Below are positions 368-60,165 of a DNA stretch of 64,000 bases, one piece after another (positions within the stretch are counted from its first letter, which is position 1; each line of letters begins with the position of its first letter). A program made the position numbers and the translations under genes. The stretch is from an uncultured Thermotogae bacterium. GTDB lineage: Bacteria; Bipolaricaulota; Bipolaricaulia; RBG-16-55-9; DRXL01. The notes under the pieces are model-generated. The model was not told where the DNA came from, searched no databases, and saw only the letters and a program-made list of their open reading frames with translations. Location: the NCBI GenBank assembly GCA_964473325.1, contig CAYYOG010000002.1, positions 55,168 to 119,167 of the forward strand, read 5' to 3'.

Positions 368-2341
368 ATGCCTTCATGGGTGACGTGGGTAGTCGTCGGA
401 TTGGTCGCAGTCGGACTGTTTATCGTGTGGCAGGGGCTGGAGCCGGGTGGTCCGGCGCTCGTCCTCGAGGGTCAGAAGATCTCTCAGAAGGAGTTTACCA
501 GGCTTTACGAGAATCTGGTCGCGCAGTATAAGCGCTTCTACGCTCAGTACGGCCAAGATTTCTCCAAGCTCTTGCAGGGGCCAGGGGGAATCGAGCGCAC
601 ACTGCAACTGCAAAGTCGTATCATTGACGATCTCTTACAAAGACGCTTGATCGCTCAAGAGGTCAAGCGTCGGCGCATCGTCATTCCCAAGGCGGACATT
701 GACGACCAAACTGAGATCGCCTTCGAGCGCATTCTGAAACAGAACAATCTCACCGAAGAGCAAGCAGAGGAGATTCTCAAGAAGCAAGGACGTACACTCG
801 AAAGCTTTAAGAAGGAACTGCACCAGACCATCGAACTCACTATGCAAACGGAACGCTTGCGCGATGTCGTCGTCGGCCCCATCGAGCCGACAGAGCAAGA
901 GCTCGCGGCGTATTTAGAAGAGCACCGTGAAAAGTACGACACCCCAGAGGAAGTGCGTGTCCGACATATTCTTATAAGAGTTCCGGAGAACGCTTCCGAA
1001 GCCGAAATCGCGCAAGCGAAAAAGCAGCTCGAAGACATTAAAAAAGAGCTAGAGAACGGGGCAGCCTTCGCTGAGCTTGCGAAAAAATATTCTCAAGATC
1101 CCGGGAGCGCTCCCAACGGCGGCGATCTAGGGTTCTTGCAGCGCGGCCAGATGGTCCAAGAATTTGAAGACGCAGCATTCTCGTTGGAACCTGGCCAGAT
1201 CAGCGATCCCGTGCGCACGCAGTTTGGGTTTCACTTAATTAAAGTCGAAGAGAAGAAGCCCGCCCAGCGTGCGGAGCTCGCACAGATCCGCGAGAGAGTG
1301 CTGAAAGACTATATCGAATCCGAGCGCGACAGACGCTTCGAGGAATTCTATCATCATCTGAAAGCCCGCGCAAAGATCTCTATCGCTGATCCAATCTTGA
1401 AGATCTTCTATCTCTATGAATATGCTGACCGCCTGGAGGAAGCTCACCAAGAGTATGCCAAGCTCAAAGATCCCAATCAAAAGCTTCATATTGCGCGGGT
1501 GTTGCAGAAGAAGCTCGAAGCCCTTGGCCCGGAAGCTGCCCCCGACCTTGTGCTCGCCCTCAAAGAAGAAATCGTGCATTTATGGTTGGCGCAGATAGCA
1601 GCCTGGCCTAACAGGGCTGACCGACGCTACGGGGTCTCGCAGATCATCGCGCTCAAGCCTAATGAGCTGCCAGGGCAAGTGTTCTTGCGGGTCACTGTCG
1701 GTGCAGGTGCTGTAGACGAGACGATACGCGTCATGCAAAGACGCTTGAAAGAGTACGGCGTTCACCAGAGCGTTGTGCTCGCTGTTGGAGATGAGCAAAT
1801 TATAATCTGGGCGCGCACCGATATGGCGAGCGCTGTGGCACGGCTTGTAAGCGTCCAGGGGAAGTTCGAGCTGAAGCGTGTCTTGCGTGAGGGTTCAGTG
1901 GGAGAGATGGTGCGGGCGACGGGGTTGGGGGAGCAGGCCATCAAAGATCGCAACGAAGCTGAAAAACCCGGCTCCGGACGCTATTATCTCGTCTCCGAAG
2001 CCCCCGTGATAGACGCGCTTCAGATCAAAGAGATCTCTGTGAATCCGGCAGGACAGTCCGCTGGCCCTATACTCAGAGTGCGCTTGAGCGAGCGCACAGT
2101 ACAGCAATTAGCCAAGGCCCTCGGTCGTGCAGAGCAAACTCTAGCTATCGTGATCGACGGCGTTGTCTACGGCACTCTCGCTGTTGGATCAGCACTACGG
2201 GAGCTATTGGCGCAGCCGGGCAGTGTCTTCGATATTCAGCTGGAAGATGCTCCCTCGGCGTCTCTGGAAGAAGCTCAAGCGCTTGCCTTGGTGCTTCGAG
2301 TTGGACCGTTCCCAACGGCTGTTCGTGTGACCCGGCCGTAA
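368..2341 (+). CDS. Membrane-anchored PpiC/parvulin-type peptidyl-prolyl isomerase (SurA/PrsA-like) with a C-terminal SecD P1-head-like periplasmic domain
   Basis: N-terminal TM helix; parvulin signature VRHILIRV...GGDLGFLQRGQMVQEFEDAAF...FGFHLIKV; the C-terminal ~300 aa resembles the SecD periplasmic P1 domain (GDEQIIIWARTD...GKFELKRV; LRVGPFP); RBS AAAGGGGG lies 5 nt upstream of the ATG. Confidence 0.7.
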   Translation: MPSWVTWVVVGLVAVGLFIVWQGLEPGGPALVLEGQKISQKEFTRLYENLVAQYKRFYAQYGQDFSKLLQGPGGIERTLQLQSRIIDDLLQRRLIAQEVKRRRIVIPKADIDDQTEIAFERILKQNNLTEEQAEEILKKQGRTLESFKKELHQTIELTMQTERLRDVVVGPIEPTEQELAAYLEEHREKYDTPEEVRVRHILIRVPENASEAEIAQAKKQLEDIKKELENGAAFAELAKKYSQDPGSAPNGGDLGFLQRGQMVQEFEDAAFSLEPGQISDPVRTQFGFHLIKVEEKKPAQRAELAQIRERVLKDYIESERDRRFEEFYHHLKARAKISIADPILKIFYLYEYADRLEEAHQEYAKLKDPNQKLHIARVLQKKLEALGPEAAPDLVLALKEEIVHLWLAQIAAWPNRADRRYGVSQIIALKPNELPGQVFLRVTVGAGAVDETIRVMQRRLKEYGVHQSVVLAVGDEQIIIWARTDMASAVARLVSVQGKFELKRVLREGSVGEMVRATGLGEQAIKDRNEAEKPGSGRYYLVSEAPVIDALQIKEISVNPAGQSAGPILRVRLSERTVQQLAKALGRAEQTLAIVIDGVVYGTLAVGSALRELLAQPGSVFDIQLEDAPSASLEEAQALALVLRVGPFPTAVRVTRP

Positions 2342-9258: not shown

Positions 9259-10008
9259 TTAGATCACCCCCACTTCACGAAGTTTCTCTATAATCTTGGG
9301 CACGGCGTCGACCCCTTGGCCTAAGATCTCAAGCTGTCGACCCTCTTGTGGCTTCTTGAGAGCCTTCCGCACTATTCGTGATGCGGGCTTGGTCACTTTC
9401 TTCTGTTCGATGGGCACTTTTTTCGCGCTCATGATCCCACGCAAGCTTGGATGGCGCGGGGTGTTGATGCCCTCTTTCACTGTGAAAACTGCAGGAAGCG
9501 GGACTTCGTAGACTTCCCAGCCGTCCTTGGTCTCACGCTTGGCGATTGCTGTATTGTTCTGAATCTCGAGGGCTTTGATCCCCGTCACGCACGGCAGATC
9601 TAATAAATACGCAATGTGCACCCCAACTTGATAATTGCACGTATCGGCAGACTCGTTGCCAAAAAGTAGCAGATCGAATCCCAAGGGTTTCACGGTCTCG
9701 GCGATCGCTTGGGCAGTCGCTGCAGGATCCCAAAACTCATAATCGTCGGCTTCTAATAAGATAGCGCTGTTGATCCCCTTGGCAATGGCTTCCCGAAGCT
9801 GTTCTTGGGCGGCTTGGGGCCCAAGCGTCAACACCGTCGAGCTGCCCCCGTGCTTCTCAATGATTCTTATAGCTTCCTCGACGGCGCACTCCTCATGGGG
9901 GCTAATGGCGAAGCCCACGTTCGTTGTGTCCACGCGCATACTATCGGACGTGAGCTTGAACCCGCCCCCAGTATCCGGGACGCGTTTGATGCAGACAAGT
10001 ACTTTCAT
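9259..10008 (-). CDS. etfB: Electron transfer flavoprotein beta subunit
   Basis: MKVLVCIKRVPDT N-terminus; start chosen at the internal Met that forms an ATGA overlap with the tsaB stop; RBS AAAGGAG. Confidence 0.85.
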   Translation of the reverse strand: MKVLVCIKRVPDTGGGFKLTSDSMRVDTTNVGFAISPHEECAVEEAIRIIEKHGGSSTVLTLGPQAAQEQLREAIAKGINSAILLEADDYEFWDPAATAQAIAETVKPLGFDLLLFGNESADTCNYQVGVHIAYLLDLPCVTGIKALEIQNNTAIAKRETKDGWEVYEVPLPAVFTVKEGINTPRHPSLRGIMSAKKVPIEQKKVTKPASRIVRKALKKPQEGRQLEILGQGVDAVPKIIEKLREVGVI

Positions 10009-10685
10009 AGAAGCTCCTTTCTCGCTACGAAATTTTTTACTAATAGATGGTGTACGTAAAGCGGCTCCAACGTCCATAGTTCGTTCTGTCGGAATTGACT
10101 GTGTTTGAGCGCACCCAACCGAGCGATGACTGCCCCGGAGGGCTGATTGAGCGCAGCTGGGGCGACTGTCACGATGCGCTCCAGGGCTAGGCGATGGCGC
10201 TCCGCCCCAGGCCCGATACAGAGTGCTAAATCAGACATTCGCTCGAGCTGCTCTTGCAGAGCCCCGATTGTGCTTGACGTCTCTGGCGTGATCTGGGTGG
10301 TGCCCTCATAGAGGGCATAATAAACTAAATCACGCCGATCCGGCAGCACGACACAGATCTTTCCAGAGAGAAACGAGACTTTTTCAGCATACGCTGCCAT
10401 ACTGAGAACGCCCACGATAGGGATGCCCAAGGCTTGCGCGAGCCCCTTGCCCACGGCCATGCCGATTCTCAAACTGGTGAACGACCCCGGCCCAAGGGCA
10501 ACTGCGATCAGTTCGACATGATCGCGTTTGATATCGGTGAGCGTGAGCAAGCTCTCAAGAGCAGGCAGGAGGCGTTCGCCTGGACCAAGCTCCGTAGAGA
10601 AAAGCATATCACCCCGAAGACGCCCATCACAGCAAAGACCGAGGCTCCCTTGCTCGTGGCTTGTCTCGATGCCAAGCACAATCAT
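10005..10685 (-). CDS. tsaB: tRNA threonylcarbamoyladenosine biosynthesis protein TsaB
   Basis: YeaZ/TsaB family; N-terminus MIVLGIETS. Confidence 0.8.
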   Translation of the reverse strand: MIVLGIETSHEQGSLGLCCDGRLRGDMLFSTELGPGERLLPALESLLTLTDIKRDHVELIAVALGPGSFTSLRIGMAVGKGLAQALGIPIVGVLSMAAYAEKVSFLSGKICVVLPDRRDLVYYALYEGTTQITPETSSTIGALQEQLERMSDLALCIGPGAERHRLALERIVTVAPAALNQPSGAVIARLGALKHSQFRQNELWTLEPLYVHHLLVKNFVARKELL

Positions 10686-17456: not shown

Positions 17457-17485
17457 ATGACAAAAGCCCTGCGCTCTGGCATAAT
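17457..17485 (+). promoter_or_regulatory. Promoter for dop; the predicted transcription start coincides with the ATG (leaderless)
   Basis: ATGACA, 17 nt, TGgCATAAT, then 6 nt to the ATG at 17492; no Shine-Dalgarno sequence. Confidence 0.35.
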
Positions 17486-17491
17486 AGCTTT

Positions 17492-18997
17492 ATGGAGCGC
17501 TTGCTCGGCATCGAGACCGAATACGGCTTACTCATAGAGGGCGTGGATGTTACAGATTTAGTCGACGAAGCCCGGGCCGTCGTGCGCAGCTATGCCGGAC
17601 TTTCAGCTCAGCCCTGGGACTACCGCGACGAAGACCCTCTCCGAGATGCCCGCGGCTGGCGTGTCCCTACGTTGACTGTTAATCCCAAAGACGAAGTCTA
17701 CGAAAAGCCCTCGCGCAAGCACTTGAGCGCCTCCGAAGACCACGCCGACAAAGTCTTACCCAACGGTGCGCGGTTCTATCACGATCATGGGCACCCCGAA
17801 TACAGCACTCCGGAATGTCGCTCTCTGCGGGAGCTTATCGCCCACGATAAAGCTGGCGAGCGCATCGTCTGGGCGGCGGCGCAAGCGTATGCCCAGCAGA
17901 CTGGACACAGCGTCTCGATCTTTAAGAATAATATTGACTATCACGGCATGAGCTTCGGCTGCCACGAAAATTATCTGGCCTCGCGCTCGCTCCCGTTTGA
18001 GAAGCTGGTCGCCGGGCTGGTTCCGTTCTTGGTGACGCGGATTCTCTTTGCTGGGGCAGGTCGCGTCGGCGGCGAGGACGGCTGGATCGACTTCCAGCTC
18101 TCCCAGCGCGCTGACTTCTTCACCGAACTCTGTAGCGTGGACACCCTGGACCGTCGCCCACTGATCAATAGCCGCGACGAGCCGCACGCGGACGAGAAAC
18201 TCTACAGAAGGCTGCACGTCATCTGTGGTGACGCGAATCTCAGCGAGTACGCAACGGCGCTCAAAGTGGGCACGACAGCATTAGTGATAGCAACGCTCGA
18301 AGCGGGCTACGGCCCGCCAGGGACGCTCATAGATCCCATCAAAACCCTCAGAAAGCTCTCGCGTGATCAGACCTACAGATGGCTCGTCGAGCTTGCAGAA
18401 GAAGGGACTATGTCGGCCCTTGACGTCCAGCGAGCGTATCTGAAGGCTGCCCAGGAGCTCTTGGGCCATCGCGACGCAGAGACTGATTGGCTGCTGACAG
18501 AGTGGGAGTCCGTGCTCGACGATCTCGAAGCTGATCCCACGCGCTGTGCGGATCGGCTCGATTGGGTCGCTAAGCGCCAACTGCTTCAGACGTTCATTGA
18601 GTCGGAAAAGCTGAGCTGGCGCGACGATATCGTGCGCAGCCTTGATTTAGAATACCATGGGATTGACCCGGAGCGCAGTCTTTTCTATGAGTTGCAGAAC
18701 CAAGGAGCGGTGCGTCGGCTCGTGACCAACGAAGAGATCGAGCGCGCCATGCGCCAAGCTCCCACAGATACGCGCGCGTTCATCCGTGGTTTATGTGTGC
18801 GGAAATTCTCTTCGGCGATCCGAGCGCTCAGTTGGGGTTACATTACGCTCTCGTACAATGGGGAAGACTTTGCGATCGATCTGAGAAGTCTTGTGGACGG
18901 TCGGGTTGGGGCACTTGCGCCTGTGCTGGAGGGAGCCTCGACGCCACACGAGCTTTTGGGTATCATACAACGGACTCTACAGGTAAAGGGGGAATAG
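17492..18997 (+). CDS. dop: Pup/UBact deamidase/depupylase Dop-like (Pup-ligase/glutamine-synthetase-like fold family)
   Basis: LGIETEYG N-terminal motif of the PafA/Dop family; ~40-residue insertion (Dop-loop-like) relative to the paralog at 20748; sits immediately upstream of the tag gene, as in canonical loci; start moved to the ATG at 17492 because the longest ORF runs into tRNA-Asp. Confidence 0.75.
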   Translation: MERLLGIETEYGLLIEGVDVTDLVDEARAVVRSYAGLSAQPWDYRDEDPLRDARGWRVPTLTVNPKDEVYEKPSRKHLSASEDHADKVLPNGARFYHDHGHPEYSTPECRSLRELIAHDKAGERIVWAAAQAYAQQTGHSVSIFKNNIDYHGMSFGCHENYLASRSLPFEKLVAGLVPFLVTRILFAGAGRVGGEDGWIDFQLSQRADFFTELCSVDTLDRRPLINSRDEPHADEKLYRRLHVICGDANLSEYATALKVGTTALVIATLEAGYGPPGTLIDPIKTLRKLSRDQTYRWLVELAEEGTMSALDVQRAYLKAAQELLGHRDAETDWLLTEWESVLDDLEADPTRCADRLDWVAKRQLLQTFIESEKLSWRDDIVRSLDLEYHGIDPERSLFYELQNQGAVRRLVTNEEIERAMRQAPTDTRAFIRGLCVRKFSSAIRALSWGYITLSYNGEDFAIDLRSLVDGRVGALAPVLEGASTPHELLGIIQRTLQVKGE

Positions 18998-18999
18998 CC

Positions 19000-19173
19000 A
19001 TGCCAGAGCGCATCCAAAGACCTATACCGCAGGACCCGTTGACCAAACCGGGAGACGATGACGGACCGCGCACGCCTAACGTGCCCAAGCCGGACACAGA
19101 AAGACTGTTGGAGCGAATGCGGCGAGTCGATCCGCGTCAAGCCCAACGGTATCGTCAGCGCAGTGGAGAATAG
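19000..19173 (+). CDS. pup: Small ubiquitin-like tag of the Pup/UBact type (57 aa, C-terminal ...RSGE)
   Basis: Position between dop and prcB; GDDD and ERLLER motifs like Pup; C-terminal Gly-Glu; strong RBS AAAGGGGGA; ATG lies 3 nt after the dop stop. Confidence 0.6.
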   Translation: MPERIQRPIPQDPLTKPGDDDGPRTPNVPKPDTERLLERMRRVDPRQAQRYRQRSGE

Positions 19174-19179
19174 TCTCTC

Positions 19180-19968
19180 ATGATTCACGGCGACTTCGCC
19201 AAGCTTCTCGAAGCCTATGGGGTGCCAGGCTGCGCCTGGGCGGTTCGCCTTCGTCTGGTGGACGAAGATGAAGCCCACGCGCAGCGTGCCGACAAAGCCT
19301 GGGTTCATGGCACGACCGTCATTGCCGTGAAGTTCGACAAGGGTGTCTTAAACGTTGCTGACCGCCGCGCTACTGCAGGGAATGCGATCTTCTCTGAAGA
19401 AGCTGAAAAGATCTTAAAGCTCGACGACGAGACGCTCATCGCGATTGCTGGCTCCTATGCCGCTGCTTTTGAAGCCGTGCGGTTCTTGCAGCACTCGTTG
19501 AAGTATTACGCCCGCAGCCAGCTCCAAGAGATGAGCTTGGAGGGAAAACTCTCAGAAGTCTCGCGGGTGCTCACCCGGGCTCTCCCTGGGGCCCTCCAAG
19601 GTATCGGGGCGTTCTTGCCCATCGTCAGCGCGTTTGATAGAGCCAGAAACGAGGGCAGGATCTTCTTCTATGATGTCATGGGCGCGCGCTTCGAGAGCCG
19701 CGAGTTTGGTGCTGCCGGCAGCGGTGCCGAACGCATCCGTGGGTCATTCGAATACATCGTGCGCACCAAGGGCCCATTCCATAAGATGACGCTTGAAGCA
19801 GCCCTCTCCGAAACGCTCTTGCTGTTAGAGATTGCCGCGTCGCTGGACACTGCAACTGGCGGGATTCGCCAATACTTGCCCTTAGCAAAAACCGTGACGG
19901 CCGAGGGCGTCGCCGATGTCCCTGAAGAGCTGCTGCGCTCCGTCCAGAACACTTTATTGAGAGAGTGA
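19180..19968 (+). CDS. prcB: 20S proteasome beta subunit with propeptide
   Basis: Propeptide followed by HG-TTVIAVKFDKGVL; catalytic Thr; Ntn-hydrolase pattern. Confidence 0.85.
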   Translation: MIHGDFAKLLEAYGVPGCAWAVRLRLVDEDEAHAQRADKAWVHGTTVIAVKFDKGVLNVADRRATAGNAIFSEEAEKILKLDDETLIAIAGSYAAAFEAVRFLQHSLKYYARSQLQEMSLEGKLSEVSRVLTRALPGALQGIGAFLPIVSAFDRARNEGRIFFYDVMGARFESREFGAAGSGAERIRGSFEYIVRTKGPFHKMTLEAALSETLLLLEIAASLDTATGGIRQYLPLAKTVTAEGVADVPEELLRSVQNTLLRE

Positions 19969-20711
19969 CCATGGCTTTTACCCCCTACGATTGGCAGCAG
20001 ACGCTGCGCCAAAAAGCCGACTACGTCGAAGATCGTCTTCGCGAGGGTAGCCCGGTCGTGGGGCTCTCCTGTCAGGAGGGGGTTTTGTTAGTGACGGTGC
20101 GCCGCGCCCAGCAACAGAAGATCTTTGAGATCTACGATAGATTGGCGTTTGCCGGACTGGGAAATCAGTCTGATCTGGAGATGATCCGTCAGATTGCCGT
20201 CGACTTTGCACACGCTGAGGGGTTCGCGCGCAGCCCGCAGGATGTCTCGATTCAGCGGGTCGTGGGCGTGGCGCTCAGCCCCGCGATGAAGCGCAGCTTC
20301 AGCGATCCGTTACGGTTGCCTTTGGTCGTCCGTGGGCTCTTCGCTCAGCTCGGTGACACCCCTGAGAGCGATCTCTTCTATTGGCTCAACTACGACGGGG
20401 AGTTTTCGCTGAGCTATCGATTTGGGGTTGCTGCAGGCACCGAGAGTGCTCATGAGGCGATGGCGCGCGTGCTTTCGGGGGTATTCAAGCAGACTCCCAA
20501 GCGCGATGCAGCTCTCGAGAAAGCATTCGAAGCCTGGGCTATGGGACGCCATGAAGCTCTGGCTGCAGGCGAGTCTGACTGGCGCGCGGTGCTCTCCCAA
20601 GCGCTAGAGACGGGTGTGGTCGAAGCAGCTCTGCTGGAGCGCGACTCACGGCGTGAGCGACGCTTTCGGTTTTTGAGCGCAGGTGAGCTGGGGCCATTCT
20701 TGCCGAGGTAA
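19965..20711 (+). CDS. prcA: 20S proteasome alpha subunit
   Basis: Alpha-subunit similarity; GTG at 19965 overlaps the prcB stop, with an alternative ATG at 19971. Confidence 0.8.
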   Translation: MTMAFTPYDWQQTLRQKADYVEDRLREGSPVVGLSCQEGVLLVTVRRAQQQKIFEIYDRLAFAGLGNQSDLEMIRQIAVDFAHAEGFARSPQDVSIQRVVGVALSPAMKRSFSDPLRLPLVVRGLFAQLGDTPESDLFYWLNYDGEFSLSYRFGVAAGTESAHEAMARVLSGVFKQTPKRDAALEKAFEAWAMGRHEALAAGESDWRAVLSQALETGVVEAALLERDSRRERRFRFLSAGELGPFLPR

Positions 20712-20747
20712 CCAGAATTGGCTAATGTAAGAGCAGGAGCGTGAGCG

Positions 20748-22193
20748 ATGCAGCATCGTGTCGTTGGGGTAGAGACGGAGTTTGGTTGCCTGGTGCGTGA
20801 CCCCAGCCTGGGGCCTTACGAGGAAGTTGTCGAGCGTGTCAAAGATGCGGTCTTCCGTGACAAGCGCTGGGGCTTGCTCGATCTGCATACCCGTGATATG
20901 TACTTCGAACCCGCTGAAGCCGGCGGATTCTTAATTAACGGGGGCCGACTCTATATCGATGCTGTGGGCTCGCACTTAGAGTACGCGACCCCAGAGTGCC
21001 GCTCTTTAAGAGATGTAATCGCCTATGAGCGCGCTGGACAACGGCTTATTCTGAGAATACTACGCGAGCTCCGCCTCCACGACAAGGTCAGCTTCTATAA
21101 CAATAGTGTGGATCACTTCGCAGGCCACACGTTCGGGTGCCATGAGAATTATTCGGTAAACCCAGAATCGCTCTCGTGGCGACATGCTTTAGAGAAGCTC
21201 GTCCCATTCCTGGTGACGCGCCAGATCTTCGCCGGGGCAGGGCGAGTCGGAGGCCATCGCCTCACCACAACGTGGCAGACCAAATCCCGTCATGTTGCTG
21301 ATACAGTCTTTGTGGACTCAGCTTACGGGGTCGAACCCGATCTAACGGTGGATTTTCAGCTCTCCCAGCGCGCTGATCATATCTTGCATACGATCTCCGG
21401 GCGAGTGCGCTTCAGCCGGGCGCTGATCAACCCCAAGTGGGATCAGATGTACGAACTGTCGCGCAGCCCGCGCCTGCACTTATTATTTGGTGAAGCTAAC
21501 CCCTCGGAATATGCGACGTTCTTGAAGCTGGGCACGACCATATTGGTTTTAGACCTGCTCGAAGAGCAAGCTGTCCCATCGGGGGTAGAGTTAGCTGCGC
21601 CGTTGCGCGCCCTCAAAGAAATCTCACGTGATCCCACTCACAAATGGATCGTCAGACGTGAAAACGGCTCAACGATCTCTGCTATTGACCTGCAACGCTG
21701 CTATCTTCAAGCAGCACAGCGTCAGCTGGCTGGGCGCGACCCTGAGACCGACGAGGTCCTCCGGGAATGGGAAGAGACCCTCGATGCTCTCGAGCGTGAC
21801 CCTTTGGATCTAGCTGACCGGCTCGATTGGGTAGCGAAGTTCACCATGCTCCAGCTCTTCAAAGACGCTGAGGGGCTTACCTGGCAAGATGACACCCTGC
21901 ACAGTTTAGATTTGGAGTATCACAATATTGACCCGGAACAGGGGCTCTACTATGCACTGCCTAAGCGGCGGCTCACCAGTGACTCTCATATTGAGCGGGC
22001 GATGGAGGAACCCCCTGCCGACACCAGGGCCTATGGCCGTGCTCTGATCGTGCGTGGCCTGCGCGGGCGCGTCGTCGGCGAATATATGATCGAATGGGAC
22101 GGAGTCTTCGTTGAGCCTAAGCGCACCCTCGTCCTGGCTGATCCCTTCCATTCTTACAAAGACGAAGCCGAGCAATTCTTAAGACGACTCTAG
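20748..22193 (+). CDS. pafA: Pup/UBact ligase PafA-like
   Basis: VGVETEFG N-terminus; shorter than the upstream paralog (no Dop-loop insertion); RBS AGGAG. Confidence 0.75.
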   Translation: MQHRVVGVETEFGCLVRDPSLGPYEEVVERVKDAVFRDKRWGLLDLHTRDMYFEPAEAGGFLINGGRLYIDAVGSHLEYATPECRSLRDVIAYERAGQRLILRILRELRLHDKVSFYNNSVDHFAGHTFGCHENYSVNPESLSWRHALEKLVPFLVTRQIFAGAGRVGGHRLTTTWQTKSRHVADTVFVDSAYGVEPDLTVDFQLSQRADHILHTISGRVRFSRALINPKWDQMYELSRSPRLHLLFGEANPSEYATFLKLGTTILVLDLLEEQAVPSGVELAAPLRALKEISRDPTHKWIVRRENGSTISAIDLQRCYLQAAQRQLAGRDPETDEVLREWEETLDALERDPLDLADRLDWVAKFTMLQLFKDAEGLTWQDDTLHSLDLEYHNIDPEQGLYYALPKRRLTSDSHIERAMEEPPADTRAYGRALIVRGLRGRVVGEYMIEWDGVFVEPKRTLVLADPFHSYKDEAEQFLRRL

Positions 22194-22325
22194 CTTCTCT
22201 GCTGGTTGAGAACCGCGAACTCTCCCGGGGTGATCAACGTCACAGTCCCCTCTGCACCGTGGGATATTGCTCGCGGTTTCTCTTGGTTAACCTAAGGGCT
22301 AGAGCTAAGCCAAGGAGAGGAGATC

Positions 22326-23042
22326 ATGAGATTGTTGAAGATAATAATGATCGCTATCGCTCTTATGGTGCTGGCAGGGTGCACGCAGCCTATTCCTATT
22401 GGGGAGAAGCCTGATCAGCCTCCTATCGCCGCGATCGCTTATGAGTGTCCGCACTGTCAAGGGGAACGCACGGGTGTTGCTCCGTTGATGGTGATCTTCG
22501 ACGCCTCGCCGTCGACAGACGACCGTGGAATTGTGCTCATTCACTGGAAGCTGAGCGATGGCCGCGAGTTCACGGGCATCCGGATCGAGCCGACCTTTGA
22601 TAAGCCTGGGAGATATACAGTCCAGCTGACCGTCTACGACAAAGCAGGCCAGAGTGCCGCAGCACATATGGAGATCACGGTATTAGCGCCGCCGCCTCCG
22701 AAGTTTCGTGTGGAGCGCACTGAGAGCGAGCTGGTCATCGTCGAGCGTATTCTTCCCAATCGAACCCTCCAAGTCGGCGAGACAGTGCAGATCACTCTTC
22801 GCGTGACAGCCAAGCACGACATCGAATACATCTATTGGCGGGAGGTCCTGCCCTATGCTCTGAGCTCTCCTGCAGATCTGGAGTTTATGATTTTGCAGTT
22901 GCAGAAGGGTGGCTCGCACGAGTGGGTTTACACTGTGACGGTGGAGCAATCGGGGTTGAGCACACTTGAGGGGGAGGGCCGAGCCGCGTATTTGGCAAAC
23001 TCTACTGAGCTGACGCTGAGCACCGTTCTAGAAGTACCATAG
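22326..23042 (+). CDS. Lipoprotein with a PKD-like domain
   Basis: Lipobox LAGC; PKD-like FDASPSTDD...YTVQLTVYDKAGQS. Confidence 0.55.
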   Translation: MRLLKIIMIAIALMVLAGCTQPIPIGEKPDQPPIAAIAYECPHCQGERTGVAPLMVIFDASPSTDDRGIVLIHWKLSDGREFTGIRIEPTFDKPGRYTVQLTVYDKAGQSAAAHMEITVLAPPPPKFRVERTESELVIVERILPNRTLQVGETVQITLRVTAKHDIEYIYWREVLPYALSSPADLEFMILQLQKGGSHEWVYTVTVEQSGLSTLEGEGRAAYLANSTELTLSTVLEVP

Positions 23043-24331: not shown

Positions 24332-25447
24332 ATGCGATCAGAACAAGCTTCGCTTGACGTTCACCTTCGCCAGCCTCTGGCTGGCGAAGATACCCAGTCC
24401 AGCCAAAATCTGGCTGTTGTTCCGACGCTGCGCCCCGAGTATACGTTCACGCGTTTTGTCCGTGGAGAGAGCAACAGATTGGCATACGCCGCTTCCCTTG
24501 CGGTCGCGGAGAACCCGGCACGTGCGTATAACCCGCTCTTTATCTATAGCGCGTCGGGCTTGGGCAAGACTCATCTGCTCCATGCTATTGGCCATGAAGC
24601 CGCGCGGCACTTCCCGTGGCTCAAAATTCTCTACGTCACTTGCGAGCGCTTCGCCACAGAATTCTATCGCGCGCTCCACGAGGGCAAGACCGCACAGTTC
24701 CGCAAGACCTATCGCACCGCAGATCTTCTCTTATTAGACGACGTGCACTTCCTGCGCGAGAAAGCCGCCACTCAAGAAGAACTCTTTCACACGTTCAACG
24801 ATCTCTATCAACGGGGCAAGCAGATTGTGCTGACGTCGGATCGTCCTCCAGAAGCTCTGCCCCATCTCCATGAGGGGCTGATCTCGCGGTTTCGTTGGGG
24901 TCTGGTCGCGGATATCCAGCCGCCTGATCTAGCAACACGACTGGCGATCTTGCGCGCCAAAGCCGAAGAACTCCAACTTGATCTCCCTCCAGCGACGTTG
25001 GAGTATATGGCGGAGCGGGTGCGCTCGAACGTGCGTGCCCTCGAAGGGGCTCTCGTGCGCGTCACAGCTACGCTCGCTCTCAACGGCCATGAGCTCTCTC
25101 CAGAAACGCTCAAAGATGTACTCCCCCCGCCAGAGCGCCCCAAGCCCCTCACACCTGAGCTCATCAAGCGCGAAGTCGCTCGATATTATCGGATTAGCGT
25201 TGCAGATCTTGAGAGTAACAGTCGAGAGCGGCGCGTCGTCTGCGCGCGCCAGATCGCGATCTATTTGGCGCGCGAGCTGACAGATCACTCCTTCCCTGCC
25301 CTGGGGACTCTCTTCGGCGGGCGCGATCACAGTACGATTATGCATGCCTATCGCAAAGCGAAAGCTCTCGCTGAGAGCCCGCTCTTCTCTGGGGAGATCG
25401 CTCAGTTGAAAGCACAGCTGCTCGCCTTGGCGGCTCAATCAGAGTAA
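24332..25447 (+). CDS. dnaA: Chromosomal replication initiator DnaA, short form with domains III and IV only
   Basis: AAA+ Walker A GLGKTHLL; domain IV RQIAIYLARELT...GGRDHSTIMHA; an upstream in-frame stop at 24323 rules out a longer N-terminus. Confidence 0.85.
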   Translation: MRSEQASLDVHLRQPLAGEDTQSSQNLAVVPTLRPEYTFTRFVRGESNRLAYAASLAVAENPARAYNPLFIYSASGLGKTHLLHAIGHEAARHFPWLKILYVTCERFATEFYRALHEGKTAQFRKTYRTADLLLLDDVHFLREKAATQEELFHTFNDLYQRGKQIVLTSDRPPEALPHLHEGLISRFRWGLVADIQPPDLATRLAILRAKAEELQLDLPPATLEYMAERVRSNVRALEGALVRVTATLALNGHELSPETLKDVLPPPERPKPLTPELIKREVARYYRISVADLESNSRERRVVCARQIAIYLARELTDHSFPALGTLFGGRDHSTIMHAYRKAKALAESPLFSGEIAQLKAQLLALAAQSE

Positions 25448-25459
25448 AATATCTCTGGG

Positions 25460-26530
25460 ATGAAGATCGAGCGTTTGGTGCTCTATAACTTTCGCAATCT
25501 CGCACCCACGGAGCTTGTCCCTGACGGCAAGCTCAATCTCATCATCGGGCCGAACGCCGCAGGCAAGAGCAATCTCTGCGAAGCGATCTATTATGTAGCG
25601 AAGGGCTGGCTCCTTAAGGGCGAGCGCCAGCGTGATGTGATCGCCTTTGGGCAGCATGAGACAGTGATGGAGCTCTCTGTGAACGGCGACGAGATCCGGG
25701 TCCATCTCGATGGGCGGGCGCGTGCGAAGACTATAGAACTCAATCACGAAAAGAAGCCCCAAGGCGAGCTGAGCGCACGCTTGCGCGTCTTGCTCTTCGC
25801 CCCCGATGAATTACAAATCATCAAGGGGCGTCCGGAGCAGCGCCGGCGCTTCCTCGATAGAAGTATTGCTGATCTCTTTCGCGAATATCGTCACGTACTC
25901 CATGAGTACGAGCAAGTACTCCGGCGCAAAAGTGCCCTGCTGCGCCAGGACAATCCCAATCTTGAAGTCCTCGAGGTCTTCAATCAAGAGCTGATAGACC
26001 GAGGGAGTTGGCTCATCAAAAGAAGGCTCAAATATATTAGAGAACTGAACAAGACGCTGGCAGCGCGCTACTGTGCCATCAGCGGCCAAGAGAGTCAGCT
26101 TTCTGTGATTTATGAAGGGCCTTCGGCCCCGCTTGCCCAACTCATCAGGGACGCAACTCCTGAAGAGATCCGACGTGGCATGGTGCTAGTCGGCCCGCAC
26201 CGCGACGATCTGCGCTTCGAGCTCGACGGCCATGACTTAAAGCGCTTTGGCTCCCAGGGCGAACAAAAGTCTGCTCTTTGCGCAGTCTTGCTTGCCCAGC
26301 TCGATCTGTACTATCAACGCTTTGGGGATGATCCCATACTGATCTTGGACGACGTGCTCTCAGAACTCGATCGTCCTCGGCTCCAGCGGCTCTTGCAGCT
26401 GTTGCCCAAAGATATTCAGATCTTTCTCACTCATACGGTTGTGGATATTGACGAGCTCTATCCTGAGGTGCGCGCGGCGGCTCAGCGCATCTTCTCCCTT
26501 GAGAACGGCAAACTTTCGGTGGTCGTATGA
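25460..26530 (+). CDS. recF: DNA replication and repair protein RecF
   Basis: GPNAAGKSNL Walker A; SMC-like signature. Confidence 0.85.
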   Translation: MKIERLVLYNFRNLAPTELVPDGKLNLIIGPNAAGKSNLCEAIYYVAKGWLLKGERQRDVIAFGQHETVMELSVNGDEIRVHLDGRARAKTIELNHEKKPQGELSARLRVLLFAPDELQIIKGRPEQRRRFLDRSIADLFREYRHVLHEYEQVLRRKSALLRQDNPNLEVLEVFNQELIDRGSWLIKRRLKYIRELNKTLAARYCAISGQESQLSVIYEGPSAPLAQLIRDATPEEIRRGMVLVGPHRDDLRFELDGHDLKRFGSQGEQKSALCAVLLAQLDLYYQRFGDDPILILDDVLSELDRPRLQRLLQLLPKDIQIFLTHTVVDIDELYPEVRAAAQRIFSLENGKLSVVV

Positions 26531-27063
26531 TCGAGCCTGCGCTGCTTGAGAAGGTGCTGCGCAAGTACGGCCTGCTCGAGCGCTATCGTGAGCAGGAGCC
26601 GGCTCTCCTATGGGATCGCGTCATGGGGGAGAAGATCACACGGTTAGCGCGCCCAATTTGGGTCCACGATAGCGTGCTTTTCGTCGCCGTGCCCAATCAC
26701 GTTGTCCAGCATGAGTTCAGCCTGATGCGGGAAGAATTCAGAAAGAAGATCAACGCTGCGCTGGGGTCAGAACGCGTGCAGGAGATTCGCTTTAGAGTCG
26801 AGAGCTTTCCAAAGCGGCGCTCGGCGCTCTCGCTCGACGCTATCGAGCTTAGCCCTGAAGAAGAACACGAGATCGAGCAGCTTGCTGCAGATGTCCCTGA
26901 TGTGGCATTGCGCGCAACGCTGATTCAGCTTGTGAAGAGCGCGAAGAAGATAGAGAAAGCGCGGCAGAAGTTGGGTTGGAAGCCCTGCCCGCGGTGTGGC
27001 TTGCTCTGTGAAGAGAATTTCTGTCCCGCATGTACGCAATCGTTTGGGGAGGGATCGCTGTGA
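26527..27063 (+). CDS. DUF721/DciA-like protein with a C-terminal zinc ribbon
   Basis: Canonical position after recF; DUF721-like N-terminus; CPRC...CPAC. Confidence 0.6.
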   Translation: MIEPALLEKVLRKYGLLERYREQEPALLWDRVMGEKITRLARPIWVHDSVLFVAVPNHVVQHEFSLMREEFRKKINAALGSERVQEIRFRVESFPKRRSALSLDAIELSPEEEHEIEQLAADVPDVALRATLIQLVKSAKKIEKARQKLGWKPCPRCGLLCEENFCPACTQSFGEGSL

Positions 27064-28223: not shown

Positions 28224-28808
28224 TTGCGGGCGCAGTCTTCCACGGTTAGAATAGTTGCTGTGAACGCGTGCATACACGGCACGACTATTCTCGCTATTCG
28301 CTCAGTACAGGAGCGTCGCGCTGTGATCGCTTCCGATGGCCAGGCGACGCTCAATAATGTCGTGCTCAAGAGCACAGCCAAGAAAGTTCGCAAGATCTAT
28401 AACGATCAAGTCTTGGTGGGCTTTGCCGGGGCGACTGCGGATGCGATCACGCTCTTTGAGCGCTTTGAGAGCAAGCTCAAAGAGTTCGGGGGGAATTTAA
28501 AACGCGCTGCCGTCGAGTTGACGAAAGACTGGCGCACCGATAGGGTCTTGCGGCGTTTAGAAGCAATGATGGCTGTTGTGAATGCTGAGGCGTTACTGCT
28601 CATCTCTGGGGGGGGTGACGTCATCGAACCGGATGATGAAATGGTCGGCCTGGGTTCTGGAGGAGCTTATGCGCTGGCTGCTGCCAAAGCCCTGCGCCAG
28701 AATACTCAGCTCCCCATCGAAGAGATTGCTCGTAAGGCCCTGGAGATCGCGGGATCGCTTGATATCTACACAAATCAACACATCTCTGTTGAAACGCTTC
28801 AGTGGTGA
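28224..28808 (+). CDS. hslV: ATP-dependent protease subunit HslV (CodW-like), possibly with a short N-terminal extension
   Basis: GTTILAIR...GDGQATL...GSGG; strong similarity to the CodW/HslV family. The longest ORF begins at TTG 28224. GTG 28260 would give a 7-residue extension before the catalytic Thr-Thr. Confidence 0.85.
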
Positions 28809-28811
28809 GCG

Positions 28812-30206
28812 ATGGCCAATATCGTGGAGATCAGTACTGTAGAGCGTCATCGTGAGTGGGCCCTCTCCCCGCGGGAGATCGTGGCCGAGCTCGACAAATA
28901 TATTGTTGGGCAGCAGGAGGCCAAGCGCGCCGTGGCTATTGCTCTGCGCAATCGCATCCGGCGCATGCGCGTGGCCGACCCAATCCGCAAAGAGATCTTG
29001 CCCAAAAATATCTTGATGATCGGTCCCACAGGGGTGGGCAAGACCGAGATCTCAAGGCGCTTAGCGAGCTTAGTGGGCGCACCGTTTTTGAAAGTCGAGG
29101 CGACTAAATACACAGAAGTCGGATACGTGGGGCGCGATGTCGAATCGATGGTGCGGGACTTAGTCGAAGTGAGCTTTCAGATGGTGCGCCAGGAGGCCGT
29201 AGCGAAGGTCAAGCATGAAGCAGAGCGCGCGGTGGAAGAGCGTCTACTGGACGCGCTTGTGGGCGCGGCGCCTCCAAGCAGCGCTGATGAAGAGCGGCGC
29301 AGTTCCTGGCAGCAGACTCGTGAGAAACTGCGAGAGAAGTTACGTGCAGGGACGCTTGAGGAGCACTATGTTGAGATCCGGGCGAAGCGTGAGTCACCCT
29401 TCTCCCAAGTTGGGTTCTTCACGGCAGAAGGCGTGGAGCAGCTTGGCGTAGATTTGGGCGAACTCTTTGAGAAGCTCAATCCCCTAGGCTTTGGCTATGC
29501 TGTCAAGCGCATGAAGATCAAGGAAGCCCGTGAGCTGCTCTTCAACGAAGAGGCTGATAAGCTCATCAATCTTGACGAGATCAAGCGCCAGGCCGTCCAG
29601 CGCGCTGAAGAGATGGGGATTCTCTTCATAGACGAAATCGACAAGATCGCTGCAGGAGGCCGTGAAGAACGTTATGGCCCTGGGGTGTCGCGCCAGGGGG
29701 TGCAGCGCGATCTGTTGCCTATCCTAGAGGGCTCGACCGTGCGCACGCGCTACGGCAACGTGCGGACTGACAATATTCTGTTTATTGCTGCCGGCGCGTT
29801 CACCATGGCCAAGCCCTCGGATCTCATCCCAGAGCTGCAAGGGCGGCTGCCCATTCGTGTTGAGCTCAAACCCCTCAGCAAAGAAGACTTTCGCAGAATT
29901 CTTAAAGAACCTCAAGACGCGCTCACCAAGCAATATCAAGCCCTGATGGCCACCGAGGGACTGCGTCTAGAGTTTACTGATGACGCCCTCGATACGATTG
30001 CTGAGATCGCGTTTCGGCTCAACGAGCGTCTTGAGAACATCGGGGCACGACGCTTGCACACCGTGATGGAGAAACTCATGGAAGACGTTGCGTTTGAGAC
30101 ATGCGATCTGCCGGAGCCCAAGACGGTCACGATTGACGCGGCGTATGTGCAAGCCAAACTCAAGGGGATTGTCGAGGACTTAGATTTGAGCCGATATATC
30201 TTATAA
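28812..30206 (+). CDS. hslU: ATP-dependent protease ATPase subunit HslU
   Basis: GPTGVGKTEI Walker A; I-domain; ClpY family. Confidence 0.9.
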   Translation: MANIVEISTVERHREWALSPREIVAELDKYIVGQQEAKRAVAIALRNRIRRMRVADPIRKEILPKNILMIGPTGVGKTEISRRLASLVGAPFLKVEATKYTEVGYVGRDVESMVRDLVEVSFQMVRQEAVAKVKHEAERAVEERLLDALVGAAPPSSADEERRSSWQQTREKLREKLRAGTLEEHYVEIRAKRESPFSQVGFFTAEGVEQLGVDLGELFEKLNPLGFGYAVKRMKIKEARELLFNEEADKLINLDEIKRQAVQRAEEMGILFIDEIDKIAAGGREERYGPGVSRQGVQRDLLPILEGSTVRTRYGNVRTDNILFIAAGAFTMAKPSDLIPELQGRLPIRVELKPLSKEDFRRILKEPQDALTKQYQALMATEGLRLEFTDDALDTIAEIAFRLNERLENIGARRLHTVMEKLMEDVAFETCDLPEPKTVTIDAAYVQAKLKGIVEDLDLSRYIL

Positions 30207-30231
30207 AAATCCCTTGCTCAAGGAGGTAAGC

Positions 30232-30840
30232 GTGAGACCCTCTGATGGAGTTGGCGCTGTCTATTTAGGAGCAATCACGGCGTTCATCGTCTTCCAGAAC
30301 GAGCTCTTTATCCGGCTTACGGAGGCATATCCCTATCCCATGGGGTTTGCCAAGATCGCGCTCCTCGCAACGTTTGGGGAGTGTTTGAAACATCGCTTGA
30401 CGACAGGGCGCTGGATCCCCGATAAGATAGCAGTGCGGTTTCTCGTTTGGGGAATCTTTGGGCTGTGGTTCACGGCGGCGTTTCCATTCGTTGCCGGTGG
30501 GGTTCAAGCGATCTCGGCAAGTCACTTATGGGTTCCAGCCAATCCATTCTGGATGAGCTTCTGGATCAATCTCATTGGAGGCTATGCGTTCTTCATGATG
30601 TTCACGCACTATTGGATCGACACAATGATTGCCGGGGGATTCTGCTGGCCATGGGAAGTCTTAGGCAAACCAGAGACGCGCCGCTGGGCTAAGATCGTCT
30701 TTATCTCTCTCATTCTGTTTTGGATCCCTGCGCATACGATAACGTTCTCGTTGCCGCCAGCGTTGCGCGTCACCAGTGCAGCGTATCTCTCTATCGCCCT
30801 TGGGGTTATTCTCTCGTTTGCGGCTCGGCGGGGGCGTTAA
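30232..30840 (+). CDS. Polytopic membrane protein of unknown function
   Basis: The GTG start is preceded by AAGGAGG; 5-6 predicted TM helices. Confidence 0.4.
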   Translation: MRPSDGVGAVYLGAITAFIVFQNELFIRLTEAYPYPMGFAKIALLATFGECLKHRLTTGRWIPDKIAVRFLVWGIFGLWFTAAFPFVAGGVQAISASHLWVPANPFWMSFWINLIGGYAFFMMFTHYWIDTMIAGGFCWPWEVLGKPETRRWAKIVFISLILFWIPAHTITFSLPPALRVTSAAYLSIALGVILSFAARRGR

Positions 30841-54589: not shown

Positions 54590-54804
54590 GCTCAACAGAG
54601 TAAACCCAAATCCCGATCCACACGCGATCTTCGTGTCGCCCTCTTGGCTTTTCCCCCCATTTGTGCTACATATAAGAGTGATAACACTCAAAGACGCTTA
54701 CTCTCGCTCAGGGCCTCGAGGGAGCAGGGGGGAAGAGCGCAAAACGAGGAGATTATGCGCACCGCTGGCCTGGCCAAGCTCGCCTTTGAGAGAGAGGAGG
54801 CCCT

Positions 54805-57004: not shown

Positions 57005-57008
57005 GGTT

Positions 57009-60076: not shown

Positions 60077-60085
60077 AGCAAAAAG

Positions 60086-60116
60086 ATTATACTGAAATTG
60101 TGGAGAACTTGTGAAG
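60086..60116 (-). promoter_or_regulatory. Sigma70-type promoter for the tolC-adaptor-ABC operon; probably a leaderless or near-leaderless transcript
   Basis: On the minus strand: TTCACA, 18 nt, TATAAT, then 9 nt to the tolC ATG. Confidence 0.35.
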
Positions 60117-60120
60117 GACA

Positions 60121-60154
60121 AAAAAAAGCAGGGGCGTCCGGCTGGACGCCCCTC
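60121..60154 (-). terminator. Rho-independent terminator for the upstream porin-like gene
   Basis: Perfect 10-bp GC stem AGGGGCGTCC-GGCT-GGACGCCCCT, followed on the minus strand by T8. Confidence 0.6.
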
Positions 60155-60165
60155 TGCGAAGATAG

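Follow-up and report, generated by a model that had tools for sequence, protein, structure and literature searches.

A probable UBact-type tagging and proteasome operon, from a Candidatus Bipolaricaulota clade with unlinked mpa

The 64-kb stretch of DNA analysed here (the window) carries at 17492-22193, on the forward strand, a tight five-gene operon that very probably represents the UBact-type tagging and proteasome system of a Candidatus Bipolaricaulota (Acetothermia) bacterium, working as the Pup system does, by homology, and with the gene of its Mpa unfoldase unlinked. In Gram-negative lineages the Pup system takes the form called UBact. The five ORFs, all confirmed, encode a Dop-type enzyme, a 57-aa tag, PrcB, PrcA, and a PafA-type enzyme, and the spacing between consecutive ORFs (2, 6, -4, and 36 nt) is consistent with a single operon. 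By consensus scan, a sigma-70-like promoter candidate was located at 17457..17485 (+) (ATGACA-17 nt-CATAAT, with TG preceding the -10; 10/12 matches, a consensus match only). Its end lies 6 nt 5' of the ATG of dop, so a leaderless or nearly leaderless transcript is possible. A terminator-like hairpin 63 nt 3' of the pafA stop (22256..22277, +; consensus scan) is a weak candidate, the count of such sites in the region being no higher than the shuffle expectation.

Upstream of the operon lie tRNA-Asp, tRNA-Phe, gcvH, gcvPA, and gcvPB, and downstream a PKD-domain lipoprotein (lipobox LAGC), while HslV and HslU are encoded at 28224-30206 of the window. Diderm markers within the window include a TolC-like OEP, MacB, and a SurA-like protein, and proteins of the same cluster carry the name Candidatus Bipolaricaulota at NCBI. 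The five-gene cassette is kept in L001-L009, L020-L026, and L156, with differing upstream neighbours, and the tag ORF was conserved in all syntenic loci examined. These results bear out most of a preliminary description of the locus, which had reported this gene order and its resemblance to the actinobacterial pupylation locus, the flanking genes, HslVU nearby, and a non-actinobacterial, diderm-like host. Its further claims of a Dop-loop insertion, a PrcB propeptide before Thr1, a tag with a basic C-terminal part that is closer to UBact than to Pup, and no Mpa/ARC gene in the window were likewise upheld by the evidence given below.

The tag (MPERIQRPIPQDPLTKPGDDDGPRTPNVPKPDTERLLERMRRVDPRQAQRYRQRSGE, 19000..19173, +) ends in ...YRQRSGE and is preceded, 6 nt 5' of its ATG, by the Shine-Dalgarno-like AAGGGGGA. 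It passes both curated UBact models, Pfam PF20513 (76.8 bits, cut-off 27.8) and NCBIfam NF033388 (80.3 bits, cut-off 35). The 54 clusters of tag homologs all end in RSG[EQ] (44 with E and 10 with Q) and share the invariant core LL..M.RVDP..A..YRQRSG. At NCBI, a protein in the tag's 90% cluster is already named [quoted passage not shown] and the UBact name is used for relatives of the tag in Acetothermia, Bipolaricaulia, and Armatimonadota. The R-S-G-E end and the matches to both models are thus shared with the UBact-proteasome loci of Gram-negative phyla (Lehmann et al. 2017, BBRC 483:946, PMID 28087277), as are the order dop-tag-prcB-prcA-pafA, a non-actinobacterial host with diderm markers, and the NCBI naming.

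It is possible, although we consider it rather unlikely, that the tag is instead a divergent Pup ortholog, with “UBact” no more than a label for Gram-negative Pup, and that the locus is a Pup-proteasome system horizontally acquired from Actinobacteria. This would be an issue of classification, since the mechanism would be identical. In its favour, the profile searches of Iyer et al. 2008 (PMC2588565) reached nitrospirae, verrucomicrobia, planctomycetes, and deltaproteobacteria, where they recovered “Pup orthologs” marked by a C-terminal G[EQ], and transfer out of Actinobacteria has been argued (Hecht et al. 2020). The tag gene sits in the same position, between dop and prcB, and the best profile-profile alignment to Pup is C-terminally anchored in register (LL.E..V....A....Q..G[EQ]), but that hhalign alignment is not significant (probability 0.4%, E 0.14) and the 57-aa tag gave no Pfam Pup match at E <= 0.1. 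Moreover, the C-terminal half has the opposite charge (net +3, vs -7 in a Pup), the end is SGE and not GG[EQ], and the Dop and PafA partners form groups of their own, apart from the actinobacterial ones. The UBact model matches, the absence of a Pup match, and the RSGE end mark the tag as UBact.

The first gene encodes a Dop-type depupylase/deamidase of 501 aa (17492..18997, +; PF03136, 531 bits), whose start MERLLGIETEYG matches gene calls on identical metagenome contigs. It scored higher against the Dop model TIGR03688 (458.9 bits, short of the 492.3 cut-off) than against PafA (358.6 bits), and its top solved structures were those of Acidothermus Dop (368 bits, vs 257 bits for PafA). The motifs GIETEYG, D-H-G-HPEYSTPE, and NSRDEPHAD are present, together with “SW” at position 46 (Hecht et al. 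2020 numbering). An insertion at ~aa 40-85 (17609..17746, +), including WDYRDEDPLRDARG, corresponds in alignment to WDFEEENPLRDARG, the Dop loop of Acidothermus; this Dop-loop is one of the defining features of Dop (PMC7947786), and it is absent from the PafA-type paralog when that is aligned with the Dop-type enzyme and Acidothermus Dop.

That second paralog is a putative UBact ligase of 481 aa (20748..22193, +; PF03136, 406 bits), whose relatives are named “PafA2 family protein” at NCBI, so both large ORFs fall inside the Dop/PafA family. At the positions that discriminate the two enzymes (Hecht et al. 2020), the first paralog has Dop signatures and the second PafA signatures. The latter carries YID-A-VGSH-LEYATPE (aa 73-76 at 20964-20975), QRADH (21366-21380), and, as in Corynebacterium PafA, E-W at position 46 (22092-22103) and a C-terminal DPF (22140-22148). 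It is also divergent, with NPKWD (21429-21443) where NTRDEPHAD is expected and an extra insertion of ~30 aa (~aa 170-200), both conserved in 57 relatives, in which the former reads NP[KR]WD. NTRDEPHAD is common to Acidothermus Dop, Corynebacterium PafA, and the aligned UBact-type Dops. In a crude NJ tree the PafA-type paralog grouped with its UBact-type Dop partner and not with actinobacterial PafA. The assignment to pafA in the preliminary description thus stands on signature residues, but finds no backing in overall similarity, the NCBIfam PafA cut-off, or the tree.

These discrepancies could be read as a locus without a true PafA, in which the second paralog is another hydrolase or a catalytically altered Dop-derived protein. 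We regard this as improbable. It would agree with the higher phmmer score for Dop structures (232 bits) than for PafA structures (182 bits), with the nearly equal NCBIfam scores (Dop 286.5 bits, PafA 284.5, both far under the cut-offs), with the replacement of NTRDEPHAD, and with an alpha-loop that is PafA-like at only 3/9 positions and that, in the AF2 model (pLDDT 87.7; Foldseek TM ~0.8 to both Dop and PafA), forms only a 3-residue helix. The split {UBact Dop + UBact PafA} / {actinobacterial Dop + PafA} was likewise recovered in 495/500 bootstraps, but its signal stems mainly from the C-terminal domain and may be due to gene conversion or to co-adaptation with the basic tag. Against a non-ligase, several features link the paralog to actinobacterial PafA: the Dop-loop is lost, a V-G-S insertion follows the catalytic Asp, and Phe 7, Ala-Thr 13-14, and His 25 are present, in addition to the acidic residue before Trp 46 and the DPF tail. 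The nucleotide- and metal-binding residues are retained (GxExE, HxEY, CHENY, QRAD, RLH, and DTRA, with K/R at the Arg227 position), and it takes no more than deleting the Dop-loop and altering the alpha-loop and active site to convert a hydrolase into a ligase (Hecht et al. 2020). Furthermore, a tag and a detagging enzyme require a ligase, and this paralog is the sole candidate in the cassette.

Between the tag and the putative ligase lie the genes of the 20S core. PrcB (262 aa, 19180..19968, +; PF00227, 82 bits) matched best the family TIGR03690 (137.9 bits, below the 191.9 cut-off). The mature beta chains of Rhodococcus and M. tuberculosis begin at its residue 45, which sets a propeptide of 44 aa (aa 1-44, 19180-19311, +) before Thr1 (19312-19314, +), and the catalytic residues Thr1, Asp17, and Lys33 are all present. 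PrcA has 248 aa when read from the GTG at 19965 (19965..20711, +; PF00227, 25.4 bits), or 246 aa from the ATG at 19971 favoured by gene callers. Its best family was TIGR03691 (79.9 bits, below the 139 cut-off), and its top solved structures were the M. tuberculosis and Rhodococcus PrcA. None of the four enzyme and proteasome proteins reached the NCBIfam actinobacterial equivalog cut-offs.

No Mpa-like gene was detected in the window, where tblastn with Bipolaricaulota Mpa returned only noise (E >= 0.9) and a Walker-A scan found only HslU, two ABC ATPases, and a T2SSE-like ATPase. Lehmann, Udasin, Livneh and Ciechanover reportedly gave, in 2017, a canonical UBact order that begins with mpa, and are said to have listed Acetothermia among their candidate phyla. 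This arrangement, with mpa directly 5' of dop, heads the mpa-linked loci (L010, L012, L015, L037, L039, L069, and L073; other Bipolaricaulota, “Fraserbacteria,” and Armatimonadota), such as L012 in Armatimonadota, L010 and L015 in Acetothermia, and L037, L039, and L069 in “Fraserbacteria.” Orthologs from these loci show 52-67% identity with the window proteins and share the tag core and the PafA-type peculiarities. L010 and L038 differ further in having ~7 kb of MoxR, DUF58, and VWA genes between dop-UBact-prcB and prcA/pafA. In the clade of the window, by contrast, mpa does not head the operon: on contig CALLJK010000016.1, from a close relative, the Mpa-less cassette and mpa are ~33 kb apart. 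Consistent with this, UBact MCX8103558.1 and Mpa MCX8103887.1 lie on separate contigs of what is, because of their close accession numbers, probably a single MAG (SKW78), and in run ERR2529108 the longest contigs of PafA P0207 and Mpa P0099 both measure 112,437 bp. The Mpa gene of this clade is therefore unlinked, not absent, and we infer that mpa lies elsewhere in the window's own genome as well. The question raised earlier about the unfoldase that serves the 20S core was right about the missing linkage, but as a puzzle it largely dissolves, because a Mpa homolog exists unlinked in the clade. At their C-terminus, UBact-type Mpa proteins carry [VI][VI] where M. tuberculosis Mpa has GQYL, the tail that the latter needs for opening the 20S gate.

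A true loss of Mpa in this genome seems highly improbable. Some other activator would then feed the 20S core, or UBact tagging would be reversible and non-degradative, as in the proteasome-less Corynebacterium. Besides the lack of an Mpa gene within the window, none of the best 120 Mpa matches fell on a 225,336-bp contig as recorded for the window proteins, and a second compartmentalised protease, HslVU, is encoded in the genome. However, every clade relative in which linkage could be examined carries a Mpa homolog (90-96% mutual identity), neither 20S gene is disrupted and the catalytic residues are kept, and docking of HslU on 20S cores is not known.

Compared with the actinobacterial Pup-proteasome system (Mpa/ARC, Dop, Pup, PrcB, PrcA, and PafA; exemplars M. 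tuberculosis, Rhodococcus, Acidothermus, and Corynebacterium), the enzyme folds, the relative gene order, the Dop-loop, the V-G-S insertion of PafA, and the propeptide and catalytic residues of PrcB are the same, and Glu-ending and Gln-ending tags both occur in the family. In contrast, the tag is not detectably Pup-like, the ligase has NP[KR]WD and the ~30-aa insertion, the associated Mpa lacks GQYL, the equivalog cut-offs are missed, and the genome encodes HslVU, which is lacking in actinobacteria (PMC3511204). The Mpa tail, the missing NTRDEPHAD, and the cut-offs are also among the points that speak against a UBact-type operon with a Pup-like mechanism.

Since the tag has no significant profile-profile similarity to Pup, and the searchable literature yielded no biochemical evidence for UBact conjugation, we infer the following steps by homology with the actinobacterial system. 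With its terminal Glu, the tag would be ligation-ready as translated. The PafA-type enzyme would use ATP to phosphorylate the gamma-carboxylate of that residue and then attach the tag to target proteins through their lysine side chains. The product of a gene at another genomic site, a Mpa/ARC-type AAA+ unfoldase, would recognise the tag and thread the tagged protein into the 20S core of PrcA and PrcB, in which removal of the 44-aa propeptide would expose the Thr1 nucleophile. The Dop-type enzyme would take the tag off again, and in relatives with a Gln-ending tag it would deamidate the terminal Gln too. The operon is, judging from its sequence, an ordinary member of an already described and annotated system, with a putative biochemistry.

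Five ORFs on the forward strand of the window (positions 17492 to 22193) follow one another in the order dop-tag-prcB-prcA-pafA, as the preliminary description had proposed; that observation was confirmed, and its reading as a tagging system with a 20S proteasome is supported by the analyses below. They encode a Dop-like protein (17492 to 18997, 501 aa), the tag (19000 to 19173, 57 aa), PrcB (19180 to 19968, 262 aa), PrcA (19965 or 19971 to 20711, 248 or 246 aa), and a PafA-like protein (20748 to 22193, 481 aa), all on the plus strand and with spacings of 2, 6, -4, and 36 nt. The gene calls were identical on metagenome contigs encoding identical proteins. Consensus matching gave a promoter-like candidate, which stops 6 nt short of the ATG of dop, and a terminator-like hairpin candidate, a weak one, after pafA. 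The neighbors listed previously are both in place, namely, tRNA-Asp, tRNA-Phe, gcvH, gcvPA, and gcvPB on the opposite strand at the 5' side and, at the 3' side, a PKD-domain lipoprotein with a LAGC lipobox (22326 to 23042, plus strand). All loci of the window's clade have this lipoprotein of ca. 238 aa after pafA (9765 to 10481 in the related locus L020, 9723 to 10433 in L024, and 9021 to 9737 in L156), while the other flanking genes vary; in three relatives an HU-like gene lies between the two. In one Acetothermia lineage (L010, 10184 to 19768, and L038), the operon is split, with mpa-dop-UBact-prcB set apart from prcA and pafA by ca. 7 kb carrying DUF7847, DUF4129, MoxR-type AAA, DUF58/VWA, SpoIIM-like, and RDD genes.

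The tag scored well above the cutoffs of the two UBact models, Pfam PF20513 (76.8 bits, cutoff of 27.8) and the NCBIfam equivalog NF033388, "ubiquitin-like protein UBact" (80.3 bits, cutoff of 35), and had no match to Pup (PF05639) in Pfam at an E value of ≤0.1. Its C terminus, ...YRQRSGE, fits the R-[ST]-G-[EQ] pattern of UBact. A database search retrieved 54 clusters of homologs, all with PF20513, that end in RSGE (44/54) or RSGQ (10/54) and share the invariant core LL..M.RVDP..A..YRQRSG; their sources, in “Candidatus Acetothermia,” Bipolaricaulia, and Armatimonadota, name them UBact. The exact sequence of the window's tag is present in NCBI, and its 90% cluster includes MCX8103558.1, annotated as [quoted passage not shown] In more than 25 related syntenic loci, the ORF is kept between the Dop-type gene and prcB, together with prcA and the PafA-type gene.

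Compared with actinobacterial Pup, the tag looks unrelated and is basic. All 53 actinobacterial Pups collected end in GGQ or GGE, whereas the tag ends in SGE, and in place of the acidic C-terminal helix region of Pup, the last 27 aa carry a net charge of +3 (-7 in an actinobacterial Pup), which bears out the basic C-terminal region described earlier. A profile comparison (hhalign) between the UBact alignment and 12 Pups from actinobacterial loci in metagenomes was not significant (probability of 0.4%, E value of 0.14), the best alignment being anchored at the C terminus. Since the UBact models were passed and there was neither a Pup match nor significant profile similarity to Pup, the earlier judgment in favor of UBact over Pup as the better fit for the tag was correct. 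Iyer et al. (2008; PMC2588565) counted proteins of this kind, ending in G[EQ], among the Pup orthologs. UBact may indeed be a Pup that has diverged very far; sequence comparison does not decide the matter.

Both large ORFs belong to the Pup_ligase family (PF03136), with 531 bits for the first paralog and 406 for the second. To discriminate Dop from PafA, residues were compared with Table 1 of Hecht et al. (2020; PMC7947786), whose numbering of discriminating positions is used here. We took as Dop criteria a Dop-loop of ca. 40 aa, the motif D-H-x-H-P-E-Y-S-T/A-P, and a Ser before Trp at position 46. The first paralog carries the Dop-loop, including WDYRDEDPLRDARG, the motif D-H-G-HPEYSTPE around the catalytic Asp, and Ser-Trp at position 46, so that the loop insertion attributed to it was found along with Dop-type residues. 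Dop was its best-scoring NCBIfam family (TIGR03688, 458.9 bits, below the equivalog cutoff of 492.3), ahead of PafA (358.6), and solved Dop structures scored higher (368 bits) than PafA structures (257 bits). By these sequence features, the first paralog is identified as Dop-type.

The second paralog was harder to place. It lacks the Dop-loop and shows several PafA signatures: V-G-S inserted behind the catalytic Asp (YIDAVGSHLEYATPE), Phe at position 7 (Phe61), Ala-Thr at positions 13 and 14, Glu-Trp at position 46, where PafA has an acidic residue, and a DPF tail at the C terminus, which resembles that of Corynebacterium PafA. Position 15 is a Pro, as in Dop. The alpha-loop, starting with His, is PafA-like at three of nine positions (His25, Ser29, and Ser33) and Dop-like at none; in the AF2 model it forms only a 3-residue helix with a pLDDT of about 70 to 76. 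The NCBIfam scores were practically the same for PafA (TIGR03686, 284.5 bits, cutoff of 551.3) and Dop (286.5 bits), both far under the cutoffs, solved Dop structures outscored PafA structures (232 against 182 bits), and its relatives are named only “PafA2 family protein” by NCBI. The AF2 model (pLDDT of 87.7) has the Dop/PafA fold, and Foldseek did not discriminate between ligase and hydrolase (TMq of 0.80 to 0.82 for Dop and 0.79 for PafA). Two further traits set the protein apart. Where Acidothermus Dop and Corynebacterium PafA share the identical motif NTRDEPHAD, this protein has NP[KR]WD, and an insertion of ca. 30 aa follows AGAGRVGGHRL; both are kept in 57 relatives from Bipolaricaulota to Armatimonadota. 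The name pafA given to this gene in the preliminary description thus stands on the signature residues and the missing Dop-loop, but the PafA cutoff was not reached and Dop structures scored higher; we assign it as a putative ligase on its signature residues.

We also built a neighbor-joining (NJ) tree from 355 ungapped columns with 500 bootstraps, a crude analysis including 14 actinobacterial Dop and two actinobacterial PafA sequences. The metagenome scan with the Dop-plus-PafA alignment returned only Dop loci because the ranking used the first sequence, and their flanks gave a single full PafA (L125) plus N-terminal fragments, hence the low number of PafA references. L125 (2501 to 5600) is an actinobacterial-type metagenome contig in which dop, pup, and pafA directly adjoin with no proteasome genes between, an arrangement like that of proteasome-less pupylation loci. 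The tree separated the UBact Dop and PafA from the actinobacterial Dop and PafA in 495 of 500 bootstraps, and the split expected from orthology, with UBact-type PafA beside actinobacterial PafA, appeared in five. In agreement with the expectation set out earlier, both ORFs fall in the Dop/PafA family, but the second paralog did not group with actinobacterial PafA. The UBact-type PafA is 47.6% identical to the Dop of its own locus and 34.6% identical to its actinobacterial namesake (46.3% for the UBact-type Dop and its namesake).

We do not accept this topology as proof of an independent duplication, given that there were only three strictly informative columns and that the grouping signal came mainly from the C-terminal domain (aa 294 to 398, by windowed analysis), where PafA and Dop of the same locus share 52 to 53% identity against 31 to 35% with their namesakes. 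The maximum likelihood tree published for Nitrospirae (PMC7947786) also conflicts with it. The pattern could have come from an independent duplication, from gene conversion, or from an adaptation of the two enzymes in parallel to the basic tag.

PrcB and PrcA both match the Proteasome family, and among NCBIfam models they scored best against the equivalogs for the beta and alpha subunits, respectively, of the bacterial 20S core, with scores below the cutoffs (PrcB, TIGR03690, 137.9 bits, cutoff of 191.9; PrcA, TIGR03691, 79.9 bits, cutoff of 139). The closest solved structures are the Rhodococcus and Mycobacterium tuberculosis beta subunits for PrcB and the M. tuberculosis and Rhodococcus PrcA for PrcA. 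As the mature beta chains begin at query residue 45, PrcB has a propeptide of 44 aa ahead of Thr1 (a propeptide had been noticed before), and it retains Asp17 and Lys33. The HslVU pair reported ca. 6 kb away was also recovered, HslV (194 aa) and HslU (464 aa) being encoded at 28224 to 30206 (plus strand), 6 kb downstream of the 20S operon, and the organism therefore has both compartmentalized Thr proteases. The same arrangement is found in the related locus L001. By contrast, actinobacteria have proteasomes “but not HslUV” according to a review (PMC3511204).

Other features of the window include consecutive dnaA, recF, and DciA-family genes (24332 to 27063, plus strand) with no dnaN between. 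The DnaA product is short (371 aa) and had no match to the DnaA N-terminal domain of Pfam; DnaA-box consensus sequences were not enriched near dnaA (6 matches against 6.6 expected), and the window has no clear GC-skew switch. Two regions (55793 to 60349, minus strand, and 368 to 2341, plus strand) encode a MacB-type ABC permease, an adjoining ABC ATPase, a TolC-like outer membrane efflux protein (OEP), an ORF in the membrane-fusion protein position, and a SurA-like PPIase. These genes, together with LptC and Lgt near the cassette of L156, support a diderm envelope. Two ORFs (30214 to 30840, 208 aa, and 54564 to 55736, 390 aa, both on the plus strand) had no Pfam family at an E value of ≤1e-5.

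The absence of an Mpa/ARC unfoldase gene from the window, pointed out in the preliminary description, held true, as no Mpa-like gene was found within its 64 kb. In more distant relatives, mpa lies directly upstream of dop (L012 in Armatimonadota, L010 and L015 in Acetothermia, and L037, L039, and L069 in “Fraserbacteria”). Within the window's clade, the cassette always begins with dop, and the upstream neighbors vary: tRNAs and gcv genes in the window, alaS in L020, a hypothetical gene in L024, an M17 peptidase gene in L007 and L008, and cbb3 oxidase genes in L156. A genome scan with a Bipolaricaulota Mpa retrieved a set of “orphan” mpa genes, with a mutual identity of 90 to 96% and with both dop and pafA absent from the surrounding 10 kb. 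One of them (L033, 68665 to 70377, minus strand) shares the contig CALLJK010000016.1 (80,909 bp) with the Mpa-less cassette L024 (31031 to 35734, plus strand), ca. 33 kb apart, and the cassette proteins of L024 are 86 to 94% identical to those of the window. Two other cases agree. In the MAG SKW78, a contig of 8,984 bp carries an Mpa (MCX8103887.1), and the UBact MCX8103558.1 is on a separate contig of 16,925 bp, assigned to this MAG only by close accession numbers; in run ERR2529108, an Mpa and a PafA that shares 89% identity with the window's protein each have 112,437 bp as the length of their longest contig. On these grounds, the unfoldase of the window's clade is unlinked, not absent, and since mpa is unlinked rather than missing, its absence beside the locus is no anomaly here. 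The genome-wide search thus located unlinked mpa genes in the genomes of relatives but none in the window, and for the window's own genome we infer the gene from these relatives. HslU had been considered as the unfoldase of the 20S core, but the finding of Mpa in the clade made this idea superfluous, and it was dropped.

The UBact-associated Mpa proteins end in [VI][VI]-COOH (e.g., ...GEMVV, ...ESVV, or ...RTVI) in 119 of 120 clusters (P0071 to P0190, loci L027 to L039), and none of the 120 has a GQYL end or a penultimate Tyr. They differ in this from the Mpa of M. tuberculosis, which needs its GQYL tail to open the 20S gate. Mpa homologs with ca. 57 to 63% identity also occur in many Abditibacteriota genomes (L040 to L072), with no dop, pafA, tag, or 20S gene detectable within 10 kb.

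By homology to the Pup system, from which all catalytic steps of the UBact system would be transferred, Dop would act here as the tag-removing enzyme, and no deamidation step should be needed because the tag ends in Glu; the 10 of 54 relatives with a Gln end would require the deamidase activity of Dop. Searchable literature yielded no experiment on the covalent attachment of the terminal Glu of UBact to target lysines, and a search for proteasomes in Acetothermia gave no result. Reports of UBact and Pup-like tags from bacteria other than Actinobacteria go back to 2008 and 2017, and the UBact class was named in 2017. With that naming, its foreshadowing in 2008, the Pfam and NCBIfam models, and the use of the name by NCBI within this phylum, the system is a member of an already known class.

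It is doubtful, as a joint reading, that UBact-type systems are mechanistically distinct from Pup systems beyond being sequence variants. On that reading, the UBact ligase (“PafA2 family”) may be no simple ortholog of actinobacterial PafA, may have derived from, or been homogenized with, the neighboring Dop within the lineage, and may work with a remodeled nucleotide-site motif, NP[KR]WD, plus a conserved beta-hairpin insertion of ca. 30 aa, and docking of the partner Mpa on the 20S core would use its [VI][VI] tail instead of GQYL. The uncoupling of mpa from the operon in the window's clade would, in addition, allow tagging and degradation to be regulated separately. The locus is nothing new in kind, and the question raised about its unfoldase has an ordinary answer. 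Its value lies in being a compact and clean case of a system for which a biochemical test was looked for in the searchable literature and not found; an attempt to reconstitute UBact tagging for the first time could start from the tag with its Glu end, the divergent ligase, and the Mpa tail that differs from GQYL.
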